Origin: an uncultured Chloroflexia bacterium
GTDB lineage: Bacteria > Chloroflexota > Limnocylindria > Limnocylindrales > CSP1-4
Direction: 5' to 3'
Length of the DNA: 64,000 bases
Assembly (NCBI GenBank): GCA_963768655.1
Contig: CAVYIM010000005.1
Coordinates: 288,001 to 352,000 of the forward strand
Both the position numbers and the translations under genes were made by a program. Below the pieces are notes generated by a model. It had not been told where the DNA came from. It searched no databases and worked only from the letters and a program-made list of their open reading frames with translations. This document shows, piece by piece, positions 46,256 to 62,166 of the stretch (the stretch's first letter is position 1; every line of letters begins with the position of its first letter).

Positions 46256-46259
<4 letters not shown>

Positions 46260-48280
46260 CGGTGTCCTCCAGCGGATGTCAGGTTGCTCACGGCTTCGCG
46301 CCGTCGGTCGAGTGAATTGCGAGCTTCATACAAGTTGCGTTGCGTTTCGAGCAGTCGAGCGATTGCCTGCGGGTCGACGGCGGCCTGCGCCTCCATCAAC
46401 TCACCGGCGTTGAAGCGGATCTCGTCTTCGAGGCGATCGGCCTCCAGAGCCAGGAGGCACTGGTCCACGCCGTTGCGGACGTGGTCGGTGTCGAGCGTGG
46501 TCGGATCGTTGGGCCCACGGTCCGCATAGAGGGCGATCGCCAGGCTGTGCAGCTCCGGCGGCAGCGAGTCGAGGAAGCGCATGCGCTTGAACTCGCCGGA
46601 ACCGCCGGCTTCGCGGTCCAGGTCGCGGTCGGCCACCATCGCCACCAGTAGCTCGCGCGCCGGAGTGCTGGGAAGCCGCGCTCCCTGCGCCGCTAGAGTC
46701 GCGGCGACCCGTTCCTGCTGTTCGGGCACGAGAAGGAGCAGCCTCAGCAGGCGAGCTTCCTCGCGCGTCAGAGACTTGAGCTCGGCCTTCGTGTCGATCG
46801 TATCCGGGGCCGACATGACGGCATCAGCAGTGAAGCGTCCCGAGCCGGCACCGGCCGCGCCACTCGACCCCCCGCGCCCGTCCGCACCGACCTGACCCAC
46901 CGGCACCGGCGCCCGCATGGCCTCCAGGAGGACCCGCTCCTCCACACCGGTGCGACGCGCCAGCGTCTGGAGATAGCTGTCGCGCACGACCGGGTCGCGG
47001 ATCTCGCGCAGCATCGGCACCAGCGCCCCGACGGCATGGCGCCGGCCCTCGGCAGTCCGGATCGGGAAGGCCGTGGCGTAGTAGTCGATCAGGAACTCGA
47101 TGATCGGCTGGGCCGTGCGGATCGCCTCCCGCCAGAGATCGGGCGTGTCGCGGATGACTTCGTCGGGGTCCTTGCCCTCCGGCAGCCTTGCGACGCGCAC
47201 GCGTGTGATCTCGACGCCGGTCTCCTCCGCCGCCAGCGAGCCGATCAGCCTGAACAGCTCCGCGCCGCCGATCGAGCCGGCGTGCTGGCCGGCCGGGTCG
47301 ACGTCGTAGGCGAGCACGATCTCGCGGGCGTAGCGGGCGATGAGCGCGACCTGGGCTGGCGTGAGCGCCGTGCCGAGGCTCGCGACCACGTTCTCGAAGC
47401 CGGCCTGGTGCGCCATCAGAGCGTCCGTGTACCCCTCGACGAGAACGGCCTCTTCCGACCTGCGCATCTCGCCCCGGGCCCGCTCGATGAGATAGAGCGT
47501 GCGGCTCTTGTCGAAAAGTGCCGTCGCCGGTGAGTTGAGGTATTTCGGCGCGTTGGGGTCGGTCGCGCCGTGGCCCGCCTCGGCGCCGTCGCCCGCGCCC
47601 ACGGCCACAGCCACGGCCACGGCCACGGGCAGGATCCGTCCGCCGATCCCCACCGCGTTCCCCGCCGCATCGCGGATCGGGAAGATGATTCGCGAGCGGA
47701 ACTTGTCGTAGGCTCCTCGCCCGCTCGATCGCTGGCTTGTCAGGCCCACTTCCGCGAGCTCCGCAACCGTTACGTTGCGCCGGCTCTGGAGCATTCGAAT
47801 CATCTGGTCCCAGCCGCCTGGCGCCCAGCCGAGCTGGAAACGTTCGACCGTCTCGTCGGTGAAGCCGCGGCCGTGCAGGTATTCGAGCGCGGGCGCGCCG
47901 GTCTTCGATTGCGTCAGGACGACGTGGTAGAAGGCGATCGCCTGCTCCAGCACCTCGCGCAGTCGAGCCTTTCGGGCGTCCTCGCGGCTCGTGCGCTCGT
48001 CGACCTCGATGCCGGCCCTCGCCGCCAGGCGCTTGAGGGCTTCGGGGAAGCTCAACCCTTCGCGGCGCATCACGAAGCTGAAGACGTCGCCGCCCTCGCC
48101 GCAGCCGAAGCAGTGCCAGCTATCGCGCGCCGGGGTCACGACGAAGCTCGGGGTCTTCTCGCCGTGGAACGGGCAGAGCCCCTTGTAGGTGGTGCCGGCC
48201 TTGCGCAGCTCCACCTGCTCGCCGACGATCTCCAGGACCGACAGCTTGCTCTTGACTTCTGCGGCTACCCCAACAGCCAA
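46256..48280 (-). CDS. dnaG: DNA primase
   Basis: CPFH.EKTPSF zinc finger, PKYLNSP, VEGY.D, D.DPAG and KDPD Toprim motifs. Confidence 0.97.
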
Positions 48281-48517: not shown

Positions 48518-48568
48518 TGACATGTCCGGGGTTGTATACTTGACACAAGGCCCCGAACCTGCTAGTGT

Positions 48569-48730
48569 TCATGGCATGGACGACCGGTCGAGCTTCGAAC
48601 CCTTCACTTCAGCCTCGCGGGCATGCTTCTTCGCATGCTCAACGACCTGCGGATGGAAGAGCTTCGCGACGGCTTCCTCGGTCGTCAGTTCATGCGCCTT
48701 CTTCGGCGGTTGGGGTTTCTGAGATGTCAC
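48569..48730 (-). CDS. 53-aa small protein divergent from the transposase
   Basis: Manual translation MTSQKPQPPKKAHELTTEEAVAKLFHPQVVEHAKKHAREAEVKGSKLDRSSMP; protein-like composition. Confidence 0.5.
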   Translation of the reverse strand: MTSQKPQPPKKAHELTTEEAVAKLFHPQVVEHAKKHAREAEVKGSKLDRSSMP

Positions 48731-49647
48731 GTCAGCCTACTTTCACCCAAGAGGTCAACCTCGTTGCTCTGATCGACTCGTTTGGTAGCGAGGACAAGTG
48801 CCGGGCCTACCTCGAAGAGCTTCGATGGCCCGAAGGTGTGCGCTGCCCGCGCTGTGGGTCCGCCAAGATCAGCCGTATCGCCAAGCGCCATCAGTTCGAC
48901 TGCGACACCTGCCGGTATCAGTTCAGCGTTACCGCCGGAACGATCTTCAACGACTCCCACCTGCCACTGTGGAAATGGTTCCTCGCGGTGTACGTCATGG
49001 GCGAGTCCAAGAAGGGGATCAGCGCGAACCAACTCAAGCGAATGCTCGGCGTTTCCTACAAGACGGCTTGGTATCTCTGCCATCGCATCCGCGAGACCAT
49101 GACCTCCGAAACCGCCAGGCAGCTTCGGGGGATCATCGAAGCCGACGAGACGTTCATCGGCGGCACCAAGACTCACTTCGGCCGGACGCCTGCCGAGAAG
49201 GTCACCGTCCTGGGTGCCGTCGAGCGTGGCGGGAACGTCCGCGTTCGGGTGAGCGACCATACGGGCAAGGTCCGCAAACACGACGTGTACAGCTTCCTCG
49301 CGGCGACTGTGGCCCCGGACGCCGAGGCGATCTACACGGACTCGGCTCAGGTCTACGACGAACTGGCCGACGGGGACACCCGCCACGAGTCCGTCAACCA
49401 CGGCATCGGGCAATGGGTGCAGGCCGACGTTCACACGAACACCATCGAGTCCGTGTGGTCGCTCTTCAAGCGATCCGTGGTCGGTTCCTACCATCACCTG
49501 TCCGCCAAGCATCTTCAGGCATACCTCGATGAGTTCGCGTTCCGGTATGACAACCGGGAGAACGCGTATCTCTTCCGCGACACGCTGCTGCGGCTCATTG
49601 GTTCGGAGCCTCTTCAGTACGCTGAATTGACGGCTGAAACCGCCTGA
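48724..49647 (+). CDS. IS1595 family DDE transposase
   Basis: RWP.G..CP.CG Zn ribbon, GISANQL..LGVSYKTAW HTH, EADETF, YTD, HTNTIESVWS and YLDEF.FR. Confidence 0.96.
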   Translation: MSRQPTFTQEVNLVALIDSFGSEDKCRAYLEELRWPEGVRCPRCGSAKISRIAKRHQFDCDTCRYQFSVTAGTIFNDSHLPLWKWFLAVYVMGESKKGISANQLKRMLGVSYKTAWYLCHRIRETMTSETARQLRGIIEADETFIGGTKTHFGRTPAEKVTVLGAVERGGNVRVRVSDHTGKVRKHDVYSFLAATVAPDAEAIYTDSAQVYDELADGDTRHESVNHGIGQWVQADVHTNTIESVWSLFKRSVVGSYHHLSAKHLQAYLDEFAFRYDNRENAYLFRDTLLRLIGSEPLQYAELTAETA

Positions 49648-55543: not shown

Positions 55544-57148
55544 TCAGCTGTTCGGGTTGGGACTGGGGCTGACACTTGGGCTGGGGGTCGACAGCGGGGG
55601 CGGAGTCAGCAATGGCATACCTCCTACGACCACATTCGTAATCCCTTGAAGAGCGTCGTCCACAAGGGCCACCTGCTCGTCCACCGTCGTGGTGTCGGTC
55701 TGGTCGGTCGTGTCGGTCGTGGTCGTGTCGAAGAAGTCGTCACCGCCGGCCACGTCGGGCACGGAGTCGGTGGCATCGACAGGGTGGACTTCCACGATCG
55801 TGTCGCCGTGCTCGTCGATCGCGATCGGAGCGCCGTTGACCATGACCCAGCCGTTGAGCAGGTCGTCGGGGCCGACGTAGTGGTAGGTATTGGTGGCGGG
55901 GTCGTAGGTCCACCACGGCGAGTTGGTGTTGGTGCCGCCCGTGCCGGACCCGGCGGTGGTGTCCTCGCCGCTGGTCGTGGTGTCGGTCTGGTCGGTCGTG
56001 TCGGTCGTGGTCGTGTCGAAGAAGTCGTCACCGCCGGCCACGTCGGGCACGGAGTCGGTGGCATCGACAGGGTGGACTTCCACGATCGTGTCGCCGTGCT
56101 CGTCGATCGCGATCGGAGCGCCGTTGACCATGACCCAGCCGTTGAGCAGGTCGTCGGGGCCGACGTAGTGGTAGGTATTGGTGGCGGGGTCGTAGGTCCA
56201 CCACGGCGAGTTGGTGTTGGTGCCGCCCGTGCCGGACCCGGCGGTGGTGTCCTCGCCGCTGGTCGTGGTGTCGGTCTGGTCGGTCGTGTCGGTCGTGGTC
56301 GTGTCGAAGAAGTCGTCACCGCCGGCCACGTCGGGCACGGAGTCGGTGGCATCGACGGGGTGGACTTCCACGATCGTGTCGCCGTGCTCGTCGATCGCGA
56401 TCGGAGCGCCGTTGACCATGACCCAGCCGTTGAGCAGGTCGTCGGGGCCGACGTAGTGGTAGGTATTGGTGGCGGGGTCGTAGGTCCACCACGGCGAGTT
56501 GGTGTTGGTGCCGCCCGTGCCGGACCCGGCGGTGGTGTCCTCGCCGCTGGTCGTGGTGTCGGTCTGGTCGCCGAAGAATGCGTCGTCGCCGAACGGGTCG
56601 GGCTGGTCTGCGGTCTGCTGGCCCGGGTTGGTGTTGGTGCCCCCGTTGTCGCCCGGGTTCGTGTTGTCGCCGCCGTTGTCGCCGCCGCTGGACCCGCTCT
56701 GGTCGGTTACCCGCATTGCCTGAAACGTGCCGTTGTACAGACTCCCGCCCTTCTCCGACTTCCATGTGACCGTCATCATCCGGCCATACGGAGTGAGCAC
56801 GAGCGTGCCCGCACCGCGGTCTTCGGGATCGGACTTCTGGTAGGTGGCGCCATGCCAGAAGGTGAAGGTGCCGTTGAGCCCGTTCAGCGTGCCCGATATC
56901 TCCAGACCCTCGGGCGATGTTCCGGTGAACGCCTTGCCTTTCTGGACGATGTCGATGCTGCCCAGCCCGAGGGCGTCCCAGTGGCCGGCCAGGCTGAACG
57001 CGACCGGCGTGGGTGTCACACTCGGTGTAGGCGTCGACAAGACATCCGCGGCTCGCACCGACCCGGCTCCGGCGGCGGCCAACAGGCTCGCAAGGAGAAC
57101 GGCAGCGGCGCGGGCGCGCAGGCCCGACCACTTGACGGTCATCGGCAT
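55544..57148 (-). CDS. Secreted acidic protein with three 96-aa tandem repeats
   Basis: Signal peptide, beta-rich N-domain, D/T/G-rich repeats. Confidence 0.8.
   Translation of the reverse strand: MPMTVKWSGLRARAAAVLLASLLAAAGAGSVRAADVLSTPTPSVTPTPVAFSLAGHWDALGLGSIDIVQKGKAFTGTSPEGLEISGTLNGLNGTFTFWHGATYQKSDPEDRGAGTLVLTPYGRMMTVTWKSEKGGSLYNGTFQAMRVTDQSGSSGGDNGGDNTNPGDNGGTNTNPGQQTADQPDPFGDDAFFGDQTDTTTSGEDTTAGSGTGGTNTNSPWWTYDPATNTYHYVGPDDLLNGWVMVNGAPIAIDEHGDTIVEVHPVDATDSVPDVAGGDDFFDTTTTDTTDQTDTTTSGEDTTAGSGTGGTNTNSPWWTYDPATNTYHYVGPDDLLNGWVMVNGAPIAIDEHGDTIVEVHPVDATDSVPDVAGGDDFFDTTTTDTTDQTDTTTSGEDTTAGSGTGGTNTNSPWWTYDPATNTYHYVGPDDLLNGWVMVNGAPIAIDEHGDTIVEVHPVDATDSVPDVAGGDDFFDTTTTDTTDQTDTTTVDEQVALVDDALQGITNVVVGGMPLLTPPPLSTPSPSVSPSPNPNS
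55686..56570. repeat. 288-bp tandem repeat, three copies plus 21 bp
   Basis: Units start at 55686, 55974, 56262 and 56550 (partial); one substitution seen (ATCGACAGGG vs ATCGACGGGG near 56357). Confidence 0.95.
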
Positions 57149-57404
57149 TGCTCCGCGGGACGCTGAGCTTCGCCCCCCTGGACCCGATGGTTGCTCCCCG
57201 GCCGGAATTCTCTCACGCTGTGGGAAGATCTGCGGGCCGGCCCTGTTCCCGGGAACGCGTCTTGCGGTACTCCGCGCCTCAAGCCGCCGGCGCCGATCGT
57301 CGTTGTGCGTTCGACGCCGTAGCCCGCCCGCCCCGGGCGTGGTTGCGCGTTTTTCGATCCCTGGCTCACACTTCCCGTGCTACGGATACGGAGGAACGAC
57401 CCCT

Positions 57405-59807
57405 TTGGACGAAGTGACGCCTCAGCCCGGCCAGCCTTCGGAGCAGCCTGGCGGAGAGGTTGGACGGCGTCGGGCCGGGCCATCGGGCGGGCCCGACGCG
57501 CCGAGCCTCCGGGCGCGCATCCGAACGGTCGCGCAGGCTTCGCTCCCGAGGGGCGCCCTGATCCTGTCGTCGATCACGGCTATCGGCGTGATCCTGGGCC
57601 TGCTCGAAACCAAGGTGCTGGCCCACTTCTTCGGCGCCGGTACCGACACCGACGCCTTTTACGCGGCCCAGGTGCTCCCCAGCCTCGTGCTCGAGATTCT
57701 GGTCGTAGGCGGGGTCAGCGCCTCGTTCGTGCCGCTCTTCGTGGGGCTTCGGGACGAGGATCCGGCCGATGCGGTGGCGTTCGGGCGAACCCTCCTGACG
57801 CTGGCGATCCTGGCGATGACGGCGGCGACGGTGGTAATGACCGTCTTCGCTCCGCAGTGCGTGTCATTCGTAGCGCCGGGGTTCAGCGGCCAGCAACGGG
57901 ACGAGTGCATAAGCCTGTTCCGGATCCTGAGCGTCACCCAGATCATCTTTGCCGCGACCTGGATCCTGGGCGAGATCCTGATCGCGGAGAAGCGCTGGCT
58001 CACCTACGCCATCGCGCCCCTCATGTGGTCCGGCGGGATCATCGCCGGGACTCTGGTGCTGCAGGGCCCGCTCGGGATATACGCGTCGGCGATCGGCGCG
58101 GTTGCTGGAGCGCTGGCCTATCTCGGGATCCGCCTGTTCGGCGTCTTCCGGGCCGGCTTCCAGCCCTGGCCGAGCCTCAACCTTCGGGCGAAGGGCCTCC
58201 GCCAATACGCCTGGCTGATGCTGCCCAAGATGCTCAGCCAGCCGCTCAAATCGTCGGTCATCGTGCTCTACTTCACCGCACTCGCATCGACCCTCCAGAC
58301 CGGCTCCGTTGCCGACCTGACCTGGGCGCGCAAGTTCCAGACGAACCCGGAGCTGGTAATCGGGGCCCAGTTCGCCATCGCGGCCTTCCCCGCCCTCGCG
58401 GCCGCCGCAGACCTGGGCGATCGACGCGCCTTCCGGCGGGTCTTCAGCAGGAACCTGGCGACGATTGCCGTGCTGTCGACTGCCGTTGCGGTCGGCCTTC
58501 TTTCCCTGGGCTGGCTGGCGGTCCGGATCGTGCTGGGCGGCGGTGCCTTCAACGCCAATGACATCAGCATCACGACGATTCTCGTGGCCGTGTTCGCCGT
58601 CTCGATTCCTCTCGAAAGCGTGGTCGAACTGCTGGCCCGCGCCATCTACGCGACCCGGAACACGCTGATACCCACGCTGGCCTCTGTCGCCAGCTTCATC
58701 GCCCTGTTCATCACAGCCCAGGGCCTGGCCCCGACAGCCGGTCTGGTGGCTATCCCAGCCGCCTACGGAGTAGGGCAGGGCGTCAAGCTCGTGATCCTCG
58801 CGATCGCGCTCGCTCCGAGGATGGATCGCATCGGCCGGCCCGCGCCGGCGCCCGCGTGGACACCGCCACGCGTGCAGGTGCGCCTGGCGGAGAACCGGTC
58901 GGGAAGTGCATATGCGAGCCGCGGCATGGGACGCGCCCAGAAGGTGGCGCTGGGCGTAGCCGTGACCGCCTGCCTGACGGTCGGCGGATTGTACACGGCG
59001 GCCCAGGCGCTCAATGGAGCCAGCTTCGGCTATGCGCCTCTGGTGACTCCAAGGCCGCGGGTCCAGCCTACCGAGGACATCGCCGTCGCGACGCCCGCAC
59101 CCTCGGGCATCGCCTCCGCGAGCGCGACCGCAACCGCAACCGCAGGCGGGACGCAGCTGGCGACGGCGGCTCCGTCCGGACCGGCGTCGACTCCCACGCC
59201 GCCCGGCCAGTTCGCCATGGACCTCTATCAGCCGGGTGACTTCGTCGGGGAGATGGAGAACACGTGGTGCATACCCGCGGCGATGCAGACGATGGAGAAC
59301 ATCATGAACGCCGGCGCCGACACCTCTGAGACGACGCAGGCCTACCTGTACGACCTGGCCAATCAGATCTCCGAGGCCCGCAACGGCAGCCCGAACCCGG
59401 AGGGCCTGACGGGCGGCCTGCAGCAGGGCGGCTACGGCAACTATGCGATCCAGACCAAGCCCACCATGGCGGCGGCCATCAACGTGGTCGTCAAGCAGAT
59501 ACGCCTCACGAACCGGCCGGCCGCGCTCTTCGTCTGGTACGGCTGGCACACCTGGGTCGTCTCTGGGTTCGTCGCATCGGCCGACCCGGCCCTGACGGAC
59601 AACTACACCGTCCTCTCGCTCTATGTCGAGGACGTGTGGTACAACCGGCACTCCACCTTGTGGAACAAGACCCGCGGCGGCTACTCGCGCCCGCCCGACT
59701 CGCTGGTGCCGTACAACTTGCTGTCGCAGGACTACCTGAAGTGGGACCAGGCGGTCTACTACGCCGGCAAGCAGAACCAGTACGTGTTCGCCGTACCGGT
59801 CACGTAG
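57405..59807 (+). CDS. murJ: MurJ/MviN lipid II flippase fused to C-terminal papain/C39-like domain
   Basis: FGAG..TDAFYAA..LP, SFVP.F and RA.YA..NT..P MviN motifs; extra TM, P/T/A linker, then WCIPAAMQTM, GWHTWVVSGF and VEDVW. Confidence 0.85.
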   Translation: MDEVTPQPGQPSEQPGGEVGRRRAGPSGGPDAPSLRARIRTVAQASLPRGALILSSITAIGVILGLLETKVLAHFFGAGTDTDAFYAAQVLPSLVLEILVVGGVSASFVPLFVGLRDEDPADAVAFGRTLLTLAILAMTAATVVMTVFAPQCVSFVAPGFSGQQRDECISLFRILSVTQIIFAATWILGEILIAEKRWLTYAIAPLMWSGGIIAGTLVLQGPLGIYASAIGAVAGALAYLGIRLFGVFRAGFQPWPSLNLRAKGLRQYAWLMLPKMLSQPLKSSVIVLYFTALASTLQTGSVADLTWARKFQTNPELVIGAQFAIAAFPALAAAADLGDRRAFRRVFSRNLATIAVLSTAVAVGLLSLGWLAVRIVLGGGAFNANDISITTILVAVFAVSIPLESVVELLARAIYATRNTLIPTLASVASFIALFITAQGLAPTAGLVAIPAAYGVGQGVKLVILAIALAPRMDRIGRPAPAPAWTPPRVQVRLAENRSGSAYASRGMGRAQKVALGVAVTACLTVGGLYTAAQALNGASFGYAPLVTPRPRVQPTEDIAVATPAPSGIASASATATATAGGTQLATAAPSGPASTPTPPGQFAMDLYQPGDFVGEMENTWCIPAAMQTMENIMNAGADTSETTQAYLYDLANQISEARNGSPNPEGLTGGLQQGGYGNYAIQTKPTMAAAINVVVKQIRLTNRPAALFVWYGWHTWVVSGFVASADPALTDNYTVLSLYVEDVWYNRHSTLWNKTRGGYSRPPDSLVPYNLLSQDYLKWDQAVYYAGKQNQYVFAVPVT

Positions 59808-59871
59808 CCCGAACCCACAGGTCACGCCGCGCGGATCACCGGGCCGGCGCAGAAACGGGACAGTCGTTGAC

Positions 59872-59891
59872 AGGTGACCCATGAGTCACCT
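59872..59891 (+). promoter_or_regulatory. ArsR operator within promoter
   Basis: AGGTGAC-CCATGA-GTCACCT inverted repeat between TTGACA and TATTGT, immediately before the ArsR start. Confidence 0.7.
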
Positions 59892-59902
59892 ATTGTCGGT
59901 CG

Positions 59903-60673
59903 ATGGACGAGGTCTTTCGGGCGCTGGCGGACCCAAGTCGCCGGTTGCTGCTGGACAGTCTCTTCGAGCGAGACGGCCAATCGCTCCTGGAGCTGACGGC
60001 GCACCTGCCGATGAGCCGCTTCGGCGTCATGAAGCACCTCCGAGTCCTCGAAAGCGCCGGCCTGGTCACCGCTCGCAAGGTGGGGCGCGAGAAGCGCCAC
60101 TACCTGAACCCGGTCCCGATCCGGCTCATCCACGATCGCTGGATCAGCAGATACGCCGAGCCGATCGTCGCGCAACTCACCGCGCTGAAGGCTCACCTGG
60201 AGGAAGAACCGATGGGCGTCCCACCCCGCCATGTCTACGAGATCCTCATTCGCACCACGCCGGAACGGCTGTGGCGAGCCATCACCGACCCGGCGGACAC
60301 GCAGCTCTACTACTACGGCACGAAGGTCCAGTCCGATTGGAAGCCCGGATCGCGTCTCGTCTACCTCGACGGCGACCAGGTCACGCTCGACTGCAAGATC
60401 GTCGAGATCGAGGCCCCCCGCCGGCTGGTCCACACCTTCACGATGGTCTACGACCCGGAGATGGCGGCGGAGCGACCGTCACGCGTTTCGTGGGTGATCG
60501 AGAAGCAGGGCGAGCTCTGCCGGCTGACGCTGGTCCACGACGACTTCGACGGCGAGACGAAGACCTACCGCGAGGTCGAGCACGGCTGGGCCGAGATTCT
60601 GTCCGGCCTCAAGACGCTGCTCGAAACCGGCCAGCCGCTGCACATCGGCGTGGAAACGGAGATGCCCGCCTAG
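59903..60673 (+). CDS. ArsR family HTH regulator fused to SRPBCC/AHA1 domain
   Basis: VFRALADPSRR..LD.L, MSRFGVMKHL.VLE.AGLV, then I.IRTTPERLW.AITDP and GW..ILS.LKTLLETG. Confidence 0.92.
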   Translation: MDEVFRALADPSRRLLLDSLFERDGQSLLELTAHLPMSRFGVMKHLRVLESAGLVTARKVGREKRHYLNPVPIRLIHDRWISRYAEPIVAQLTALKAHLEEEPMGVPPRHVYEILIRTTPERLWRAITDPADTQLYYYGTKVQSDWKPGSRLVYLDGDQVTLDCKIVEIEAPRRLVHTFTMVYDPEMAAERPSRVSWVIEKQGELCRLTLVHDDFDGETKTYREVEHGWAEILSGLKTLLETGQPLHIGVETEMPA

Positions 60674-60787: not shown

Positions 60788-61507
60788 ATGCCTGGCGAGC
60801 TGTTCGAACGCGCCACCACCGAAACGCCCGTCGTCGCAGCGTCGGAGATGGAGGTGGCCTCCCGCGACCGTGGCTATGGCGGCGTGGCGATCCTGCTCGC
60901 GGTCGCCGCGGTCGTGGCCGCGATCATCGGCGCTCGCGCTTCGATGGTCTCGAGCGACGCCAACGACTCGTGGCAGTCAGCCTTGCGCACCGAGGTCAAA
61001 CGTTCCGCCGCAGCGATGAACGACGTGCAGGCTCTCTATCAGAGCGACCTTCCGACGGCAATCGAGGTTCTCAAGGCCCAGATCCTGGCCAGGGAGCTGC
61101 AGGCCGCCGAAGCGGGCCAGAGCCCGGCCGTCCAGCAGGCGCTCGAGGTCGAAGCCAGCGTTCAGAGCCAGCTCGCGGTCGCCCTGGCGTCCGGCGCCGA
61201 GCTTGCCAGCGACCCGGCGTACGCCCTGCCATCGGGAGGCTTCGACCTGGGCAAGAGCCTGGCCGATATCCGATCCACCAACCCCCAGCTCTTAGCCCTC
61301 GATCCGGATAGCCAGGAGGCGGCCGGCGACTCGCTGGCCCAGAAGGCGCTGCTCCTGACCCTCGCTCTGATACCGACGGGTCTGTGTGCCCTGCTCGGTG
61401 TCCTGGCTCAACCGCTACGGCGCTACCGCAAGGTCCTGCTTGGCAGTGGCGTCGTCGCTCTCGCGGTCGGAGTGGTGATGGCGATCGGCGTGGAGGTGCT
61501 CGCATGA
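60788..61507 (+). CDS. DUF4337-like membrane protein (TM, helical ectodomain, 2 TM)
   Basis: VAILLAVAAVVAAI TM, A.D.W motif, C-terminal TM pair. Confidence 0.6.
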   Translation: MPGELFERATTETPVVAASEMEVASRDRGYGGVAILLAVAAVVAAIIGARASMVSSDANDSWQSALRTEVKRSAAAMNDVQALYQSDLPTAIEVLKAQILARELQAAEAGQSPAVQQALEVEASVQSQLAVALASGAELASDPAYALPSGGFDLGKSLADIRSTNPQLLALDPDSQEAAGDSLAQKALLLTLALIPTGLCALLGVLAQPLRRYRKVLLGSGVVALAVGVVMAIGVEVLA

Positions 61508-62166
61508 TCGCCCCCGATGCCGCCGCAGACCTGCGGGCGGAGCGGCGCTTCGATCTTCTGGCCGCCGTCCTGATCGGCGCGATCGCCATCCTGGCGGCTG
61601 TGCTGGCGGTGATCCAGATCGAGACCGGGCAGGCGTCCACGCGCGCCCAGATCGAGGCGGCCCGTCTGACGGCCGATCTTTCGGCCCGCCTCCAGGTCAG
61701 CGGCACAGCCCAGACTGCGGCCATCGTCGACCAGCAGGAGGCCCTGGCACTGTCGATGCAGGCCACGGGTCGGGGGCTGGCAGCGCTGCAGTATGGAGAC
61801 GACGGCGCGGCAGCCATCGGCGAGGCGGAGACGCAGGCCGCAGCCGATCTCGGGACCGCCCTGGCCGCCACATCGGCCACCAGCGGCGGCGCGCCCCTCG
61901 ACTCCTACACCGCCGGCTTGCTGAATGCGACGACGCCGCAGCTGCTAGCTGAGCTCGGCGAGCAGAACCGTCAGGTCGACCTGGCCAACGACGCCGGCAC
62001 CCGCAATTCCAGGTCGATCCTCGGGCTCTCGTTGCTGGCCCTGGCCGGCGTCCTGACCGGTCTTGCGGCCGTGCTGCGGGAAGGGCGCGCCGGCTGGATC
62101 GCCCTTCTGTCCGCGGTCGGGATGGCGGGCGCGGCCGAGCTCCTGGCGGTGCTGGCCGTGATCTGA
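61504..62166 (+). CDS. Second membrane protein of similar topology
   Basis: ATGA overlap with the previous gene; same TM-helix-2TM layout. Confidence 0.65.
   Translation: MIAPDAAADLRAERRFDLLAAVLIGAIAILAAVLAVIQIETGQASTRAQIEAARLTADLSARLQVSGTAQTAAIVDQQEALALSMQATGRGLAALQYGDDGAAAIGEAETQAAADLGTALAATSATSGGAPLDSYTAGLLNATTPQLLAELGEQNRQVDLANDAGTRNSRSILGLSLLALAGVLTGLAAVLREGRAGWIALLSAVGMAGAAELLAVLAVI

Follow-up and report, generated by a model that had tools for sequence, protein, structure and literature searches.

A shortened second MurJ copy joined to a membrane-anchored papain-fold domain in Limnocylindria: a candidate accessory module of the cell wall

Introduction

What is a MurJ-family transporter doing in one polypeptide with a papain-fold domain? 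MurJ is normally the single essential flippase of its cell. We analyzed a gene in a 64,000-nucleotide stretch (the window) from an uncultured Chloroflexia bacterium of the class Limnocylindria (assembly GCA_963768655.1, contig CAVYIM010000005.1, positions 288,001 to 352,000), in which a MurJ-derived part, called MurJ2 here, is followed by an extra transmembrane (TM) helix, a stalk and a C39-like domain. An earlier reading of the letters alone (the original prediction) had proposed a working lipid II flippase that feeds an enzyme at the membrane's outer side, which may trim or cross-link the flipped precursor or attach it to surface proteins. We propose that MurJ2 is a membrane scaffold positioning or gating an outward peptidase that edits peptidoglycan stems, the two forming an accessory wall-editing module; this is the reading we favor, at somewhat under an even chance.

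Results

The fusion gene joins two parts in one frame

The gene is a single frame from a TTG start at 57405 to a TAG at 59805-59807, and its 800-amino acid (aa) product has the predicted order of MurJ, extra helix, stalk and a domain of about 200 aa (Table 1). The MurJ family PF03023 matches residues 72-473 over profile positions 1-403 of 451 with 186 bits, compared to a curated cut-off of 27.4. The TIGR01695 equivalog model, scored on the fused protein and not on the canonical copy, reached 188.5 over profile positions 4-430 of 506, below its cut-off of 235.55. The motifs KVALGV, NTWCIP, GWHTWV and YVEDVW begin at residues 513, 619, 713 and 740, the last three carrying the Cys, His and Asp at the places where the original prediction had put them.

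To define a homologue set, we searched with residues 595-800 for proteins of 440-1400 aa, which gave 185 matches, 120 of them listed (one being the window's own protein). The fused architecture was found in every listed homologue: all 120 carry PF03023 along with the C-terminal domain, and those bearing an organism label are Ca. Limnocylindrales. The residues C622, H715 and D743 are present in 120 of 120, as is a single hydrophobic helix between TM12 and the C-terminal domain. The stalk, roughly 65 residues long in the window protein and 54-90 across the listed fusions, has at its start the conserved motif P-x-x-T-P-(W/R)-x-R, whose Thr548 is found in all 120. The full-length model (predicted local distance difference test (pLDDT) 82.6, predicted template modeling score 0.66) shows a helical core with one more helix after it, then a stalk of low confidence and, apart from the core, a domain modeled with confidence. 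These results confirm that the fusion is real and not an assembly artefact.

Lys and Arg are biased around the extra helix, with a mean of 3.8 in the preceding 15 residues and 0.3 after it in the listed fusions. Because of this bias, and because TM12 of MurJ ends inside the cell, the C-terminal domain is predicted to be outside, in agreement with the original prediction and not in the cytoplasm, the placement that had been named as speaking against it.

The C-terminal domain has a predicted papain/C39-type fold

The proposed papain/C39-like fold was upheld by the model of the C-terminal domain (pLDDT 95.2), by fold searches and by the conserved Cys-His-Asp. In Foldseek an E value of 0.001 was reached by two matches only, both to the C39 domain of ComA. 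In VIA-align, nearly all of the 50 rows shown have titles of papain-fold proteins, and the best match was 6MPZ (Z 14.5, root-mean-square deviation (rmsd) 2.6 A, 133 residues aligned), followed by ComA (5XE8, Z 13.9), PCAT1 (8VP3, 13.6), the C39-like 3ERV (13.0), PeiR (8Z4H, 12.5) and phytochelatin synthase (Alr0975, 12.1), all at 11-14% identity. The secondary structure of the model fits a triad, with the Cys at a helix start, the His at a strand start and the Asp at the end of the next strand, and the matches of five homologues to PF13529 (Peptidase_C39_2) stop at a D-P-W aligned to D743. Together, the model and the fold matches support a papain/C39-type, clan CA-like fold. Six residues before the Cys, where 79 of the 86 rows from the wider family have the usual Gln, all 120 listed fusions have Glu.

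Sequence searches gave little for this domain. The last 200 residues of the window protein had no Pfam or NCBIfam match, PF13529 matched neither the domain nor anything in its own genome, and PDB sequence searches with domain profiles yielded nothing significant. Nothing was found in PHROGs for the window's domain; short stretches of two homologues gave weak endolysin matches (E 0.003-0.004) that are not taken as support. The Cys motif of phytochelatin synthase was aligned at a non-significant E of 0.77. With 899 clusters at E 0.001, the peptidase family is a large one. Among the 85 members scanned of 150 listed, 14 match PF13529, seven over the cut-off, and PKD, fn3 and ankyrin occur as accessory domains; the Atlas neighbors of a stand-alone homologue (P0134) are Peptidase_C39_2 clusters (0.95). 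Within the same fold, PeiR is reported as a C39-type wall-lytic enzyme (PMC6189367), and C39-like domains have been assigned bioinformatically in phage lysins (PMC3314691, PMC8223927). Fold likeness by itself reveals no substrate.

The composition of the family brings up the possibility that the enzyme is a protease or acyltransferase that matures or sheds surface proteins, with MurJ2 sensing the status of the lipid carrier and switching the enzyme. Family members are secreted or anchored and have PKD or fn3 domains instead of wall-binding ones, and the family is expanded in these genomes, with six matches in all in the window's own genome. However, no conserved target gene is found nearby and MurJ2 has no signaling domain, and we regard this explanation as quite improbable. 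The paralogues in the window's own genome include a secreted stand-alone protein of 529 aa with Gly at the Asp site (L004:7012-8601, + strand) and a single-helix protein near the clade of the MurJ2 partner described below, about 30 kb from the canonical murJ (L005:7892-8779, - strand).

The genome has a canonical murJ, and the fused copy lacks MurJ features

A separate canonical murJ, which the original prediction had proposed to look for, was found on contig C7 of the same genome. This second PF03023 match scores 277 bits, better than the fusion, has 14 helices and is tail-to-tail with a transpeptidase-domain gene; Mur ligases, penicillin-binding proteins and two SEDS genes show that the wall pathway is present. 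Across 24 genomes of the genus, a full canonical murJ was recovered in 21, only pieces in two, and the fused copy only in one. With this canonical murJ at another site in the genome, the fused copy is unlikely to be the housekeeping flippase.

In an alignment with E. coli MurJ, TM13-14, R18 and R24 are found in 22 of 22 canonical copies. The same copies (L001 and L008-L028) have invariant R46, R236 and H364 (22/22), a further charge layout in what are presumed to be the lipid II flippases of Limnocylindria. The small-genome family f2 (L031-L037; 1.0-1.4 Mb) has one divergent murJ that keeps R18 and R24 (7/7), and a C39-like domain was not found with the query used in 16 of 16 of its genomes.

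The top fold matches of the transporter core of the fusion are MurJ structures. Its MurJ part ends after TM12, with the extra helix in the place of TM13-14. Among the 118 listed fusions with a near-complete core, R18 is absent from all and R24 is present in 15; the window protein has V62, E68 and K310 at E. coli R18, R24 and R270, and at E. coli position 171, the monoderm site, none of the fusions is basic. R24 and R270 have been called essential (PMC6465408, PMC13661225), with the cationic site R18-R24-R270 likewise called essential in E. coli (PMC13661225), and stops between TM12 and TM13 are reported as not tolerated in E. coli (10.1101/260596). The gates are kept in the fusions (D39 in 115 of 118, T/S at 263 in 111, P66 in 118 and P289 in 113), and two new conserved acids, E190 and E404, are present in 118 of 118. 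The fusion fails three MurJ features tested, and we file it as a MurJ-derived paralogue and not as a MurJ flippase. The claim of a working lipid II flippase feeding the enzyme found no support, given the canonical murJ and the absence from the fused copy of TM13-14, Arg18 and, in the window's genus, Arg24.

Unfused MurJ2 is encoded beside a separate peptidase

We searched 251 genomes of the class with the MurJ part and crossed the positions with searches for the neighbor gene and the fused domain, setting score cut-offs at gaps seen after searching; two unpublished MurJ2-bearing genomes were left out to give a survey set of 249. MurJ2 stands out as a distinct clade (at least 38% identity and more than 200 bits, the next score being 152) and occurs in two of the five families of the class. 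In 401 genomes of the phylum, the best match outside the class was 168 bits; on these scores the MurJ2 clade is taken to be Limnocylindria-only. We counted 115 MurJ2 copies in 113 of the 249 genomes, 23 of them with a fused-type domain directly downstream. The other 92 are unfused, and their peptidase partner is tail-to-tail in 85, head-to-head in three and on another contig in three (one of these adjacent across the contig break); the remaining unfused copy is at a contig end. The partner thus adjoins unfused MurJ2 in 88 of 92 cases; 16 of 18 loci read in detail are convergent and two divergent. Because related genomes do not count as independent and the genomes have gaps, these pairing counts are a pattern without a test statistic.

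The partner, a membrane-anchored protein of the same peptidase family, has one helix, a conserved motif close to the membrane (G-x-G, amphipathic helix, P-x-P-D-R) and a Pro/Thr stalk, and its Cys-His-Asp is conserved in 77 of 77. It occurs without MurJ2 in two genomes, once at a contig end. Neither the partner clade nor an unfused MurJ2 was found in the 23 fusion-type genomes (0/23); the fused and partner arrangements exclude each other in the genomes searched. Neither gene is present in 134 of 249 genomes, or 132 of 247 without the unpublished G119 and G203. The pair is found in many different gene contexts, and any other neighbor is common to at most 12 of 41 loci. Several relatives keep the pair in the interval between rarA and an aminotransferase gene, which in the window's own genome holds a PIN-domain gene. 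A complex prediction for one unfused MurJ2 with partner residues 1-68 (anchor helix and motif) scored 0.00 with an uncertain partner fold, and speaks neither for nor against a contact.

Two genomes (L058 and G199, G205) have two MurJ2 and partner pairs, with both genes in each copy, and it seems that the module duplicates or moves as a whole. At five loci (L062:4558-6123, L063:3794-5239, L064:8859-9959, L077:8778-10676 and L117:3852-4673), MurJ2 has more distant relatives of the peptidase beside it. A common glycan locus near MurJ2 was sought among the neighbors and not found.

The original prediction had counted relatives with separate genes as evidence against a functional fusion. Such relatives do occur, yet the separate genes are adjacent, and this adjacency strengthens the tie between the two parts. 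It also bears on the possibility that the fusion is an accident, either a lost stop, a misassembly or a neutral join of unrelated neighbors. Three of the 23 fusion-type loci are frame-broken, one of them between the two parts, and kin are not independent, both of which could be cited for an accident. Against this, both parts are joined in all listed homologues and the pair outlasts changes of neighborhood and orientation. Fusion by read-through into the neighbor was ruled out, the unfused partner being on the opposite strand and another paralogue. The accident reading has already been largely refuted and retains only a very slight probability.

MurJ2 was probably paired twice, and its cavity may have drifted after fusion

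MurJ2 forms one clade on a long branch, with a support of 100 in the Shimodaira-Hasegawa-like approximate likelihood ratio test. The tree was rooted on the long E. coli branch; in it, the 14 fused rows group as a clade (99) that falls within the 18 unfused rows at nodes supported by only 82-93, and the unfused form is likely ancestral to the fusion. In the peptidase tree (68 of 187 rows), the fused domains and the partner domains each fall into a clade of their own (98-99 and 99, respectively). Holding the two together was rejected by the approximately unbiased test (p = 8e-5), or at p = 0.038 with five partner-like rows added; the choice of these five rows, and of one stand-alone row within the fused group, was made with the first tree in view. 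Six matches are stand-alone anchored proteins of the fused type. Because the fused domain is in a different clade from the partner and fusion-type genomes lack the partner, two pairings are likely: on the tree topology, MurJ2 most likely came to be tied to two distinct paralogues from a single enzyme family.

All 18 unfused copies read stop after TM12, with no further helix. The cavity of unfused MurJ2 lacks R18 (0/77) and keeps R24 (77/77), E49 (76/77) and D53 (70/77), a signature also kept by the fusions outside the window's genus (7 of 7 readable). In the window's genus, R24 is absent from 15 of 15, the sub-lineages differ at cavity sites, and two glutamates, E276 and E368 in E. coli numbering, come in. 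In sets thinned to 75% identity (28 fused and 40 unfused), nine cavity positions as named in papers were 1.43 bits more variable in fused than in unfused copies, the corresponding figure for random helix positions being 0.09 (0 of 20,000 draws). For two of these nine, an offset was used to convert T. africanus numbering, and the helix limits are approximate. Either relaxed or diversifying selection may lie behind this variability.

The pattern of loss also suits a permease for a soluble substrate, which would take up released wall peptides or muropeptides, or export a small peptide that the enzyme matures outside. What is gone is the groove for the lipid tail (TM13-14) and the portal residue R18; unfused copies retain the gates and the residues deep in the cavity, and the best fold matches are transporter-linked peptidases. 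However, the peptidase of peptidase-containing ABC transporters (PCATs) is cytoplasmic and sits on an ABC exporter, and no small-peptide or recycling gene recurs nearby among open reading frames (ORFs) above 90-100 aa. We consider a permease unlikely, even with C39_2 genes reported near transporters (PMC10318531).

Other features of the window

The coordinates of the fusion gene and its parts are collected in Table 1. Divergent from it is a gene for a predicted secreted protein of 534 aa (55544-57148, - strand), acidic and Thr-rich with weak Pfam matches only; within it, tandem 288-bp repeats at 55686-56570 (3.1 copies, 99% identical) reflect a recent expansion or an assembly effect. On the other side, a sigma-70-like promoter match (59867-59896, + strand, 10 of 12) is just 5' of an ArsR-SRPBCC/AHSA1 fusion gene (59903-60673), which suggests that the MurJ2 fusion gene is not co-transcribed with that gene. 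Two adjacent Ala-rich membrane ORFs of 239 and 220 aa (60788-62166, + strand) have no Pfam match; at 7 of 41 loci the 239-aa ORF is again next to the fusion. An IS1595-family transposase (48565-49647, + strand; PF12762, PF12760) is in a lower-GC stretch beside a dnaG-like ORF (46256-48280).

Table 1. Parts of the MurJ2 fusion gene in the window
Feature	Position	Strand	Basis or detail
Whole fusion gene (MurJ2, anchor helix, stalk and C39-like domain)	57405..59807	+	800 aa; protein record P0002
GGAGG ribosome-binding-like site	57390..57394	+	Sequence; 10 nt 5' of the TTG start
MurJ-derived MOP (multidrug/oligosaccharidyl-lipid/polysaccharide) core, 12 helices, without TM13-14, residues ~46-473	57540..58823	+	PF03023; E. 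coli MurJ alignment; model; fold search
TM1 cavity positions, Val62/Glu68 at E. coli Arg18/Arg24	57588..57608	+	Alignment
Arg-rich loop 3' of TM12, predicted cytoplasmic	58824..58940	+	Charge count
Single extra transmembrane helix, the peptidase anchor	58941..59003	+	Hydropathy; helix in model
Pro/Thr/Ala stalk, low model confidence	59004..59201	+	Model; alignment
Papain-fold C39-like domain, residues 600-800, predicted extracytoplasmic	59202..59804	+	Model; fold searches
Glu616 (likely oxyanion site) and Cys622 (predicted nucleophile)	59250..59270	+	Alignment
His715, predicted catalytic	59547..59549	+	120/120 listed fusions; 85/86 family rows
Asp743, predicted third triad residue	59631..59633	+	120/120 listed fusions; 77/77 partners; 60/86 wider family rows

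Discussion

We propose that a shortened second MurJ copy, joined to a membrane-anchored papain-fold cysteine enzyme, acts with it as an accessory module. MurJ2 would be the platform that positions or gates the outward enzyme and not the cell's lipid II flippase. The enzyme would be outside and catalytically active, reaching out on its stalk to peptidoglycan stems close to the membrane, in which it would cut or transfer a peptide bond or an isopeptide bond. The ancestral form may have been two genes; one fusion would then have swapped the old partner for a paralogue, after which the cavity drifted in the genus. The case for a wall substrate is indirect and by analogy. A more specific version is offered tentatively, at a little under one chance in three: the duplicate MurJ would be the membrane half of a dedicated envelope machine in two parts, a 'pseudo-flippase' binding a lipid-linked intermediate of the wall and controlling a tethered papain-fold (trans)peptidase, with the family recruited once as a neighboring gene and once through fusion, and the transport cavity shed within the genus.

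Several observations weigh against the scaffold proposal. The best fold matches are leader-peptide proteases rather than wall hydrolases, no wall-binding Pfam family was found in the 85 family members scanned, and tblastn against phages with the window and partner domains gave no match. One genome of the genus (G010, 94% complete, 120 contigs) yielded the fused copy only. The canonical copies themselves lack R52, E57 and R270 (22 aligned), monoderm MurJs are reported to carry the R24 charge on another helix (PMC13661225), and K70, K275, R309 and K310 of the window protein might compensate for lost charges. Both rocker-switch gates are retained (D39/S263; F64-P66/P289), R24 is kept in the unfused copies and in the fusions outside the genus, as fits real transport, and WzxE is reported to flip the undecaprenyl-linked glycan lipid III with 12 helices (PMC11706664).

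The gates, the conserved R24, E49 and D53 of the unfused copies, the acids E190 and E404 and the example of WzxE favor a MurJ2 that has remained a flippase, its substrate being a modified lipid II or some other undecaprenyl-linked unit, with the enzyme trimming or transferring the product on the outer face, which is the original prediction with a different substrate; the fold also includes acyl-transfer enzymes such as phytochelatin synthase. However, a canonical murJ is present, the cavity residues vary between sub-lineages of the genus, and no glycosyltransferase or polymerase recurs beside MurJ2 (76 of 123 called neighbors scanned). About one chance in four or a little better is what we would give it, which leaves it rather doubtful.

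Compared with known systems, the fusion does not work in the manner of a PCAT or of mycobacterial MviN. It shares with MurJ/MviN (PF03023, TIGR01695; 6CC4, 5T77, 7WAW) the 12-helix MOP core, by sequence and fold, and the gate residues, but differs in the missing TM13-14 and R18, the missing R24 in the genus, the score below the TIGR01695 cut-off and its status as an additional copy in a genome that has a canonical murJ. MviN of mycobacteria (Rv3910) is likewise a transporter of the MurJ family that is extended at its C-terminus and has an odd helix number (15), but its appended domain is described as a phosphorylated pseudokinase on a working flippase (PMC11898655), whereas the fusion has a papain-fold domain on a shortened paralogue and no kinase family match in Pfam and NCBIfam scans. 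Wzx flippases (WzxE, 9G9P) are 12-helix MOP flippases without TM13-14 and align with a TM-score of 0.85 of target; MurJ2 is closer to MurJ in sequence, and the loci differ in that no glycan locus recurs beside MurJ2.

For the enzyme, the C39 domains of PCAT/AMS (ABC transporter maturation and secretion) proteins (ComA 5XE8, 6MPZ, PCAT1 8VP3) are the best structural matches (Z 13.6-14.5, rmsd 2.6-2.8 A, 131-133 residues), with the same order of Cys, His and Asp and a transporter in the same chain; C39 peptidases of PCATs are described as fused to ABC transporters (PMC10318531). The fusion domain differs in its 11-14% identity, larger size, C-terminal and predicted outside position, its MOP rather than ABC transporter (no ABC domain was found by Pfam scan) and the Glu at the usual Gln site. 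Peptidase_C39_2 (PF13529; 3ERV), PeiR (8Z4H), lysin N5 domains and phytochelatin synthase Alr0975 have the same fold (Z 12.1-13.0), but the window domain has no Pfam and no phage match. SagB-SpdC of S. aureus is an analogy of design, a non-catalytic polytopic membrane protein that is reported to scaffold a single-helix wall hydrolase (10.1101/2020.05.21.109470); there is no homology, with a CAAX-protease fold and a glucosaminidase there and a MOP fold and a papain fold here.

We found no prior description of a MurJ-peptidase fusion by title and abstract in the open literature, most subscription papers being outside this coverage, in keeping with the claim of an undescribed module. Passages of PMC12419801, PMC10608941 and PMC10318531 hold no description of it; those of the last, a review of the papain-like family, note C39_2 genes near transporters and not MurJ. 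The fusion is a real new combination of known parts, and beyond it the analysis brought out the unfused pair, the loss of helices and the erosion of the cavity. The series from canonical MurJ through unfused MurJ2 and early fusion to the cavity-eroded fusion offers a natural test of TM13-14, of the cavity arginines and of how a transporter fold may become a scaffold. It gives the large uncharacterized C39-like family a concrete testable partner and a likely substrate class, and offers a first handle on the cell-wall biology of a widespread Chloroflexota class known from genomes. If the pseudo-flippase version is true, no protein of the MOP fold before MurJ2 would have been turned into a regulator of a hydrolase, and C39_2-type enzymes would gain a role in wall building.

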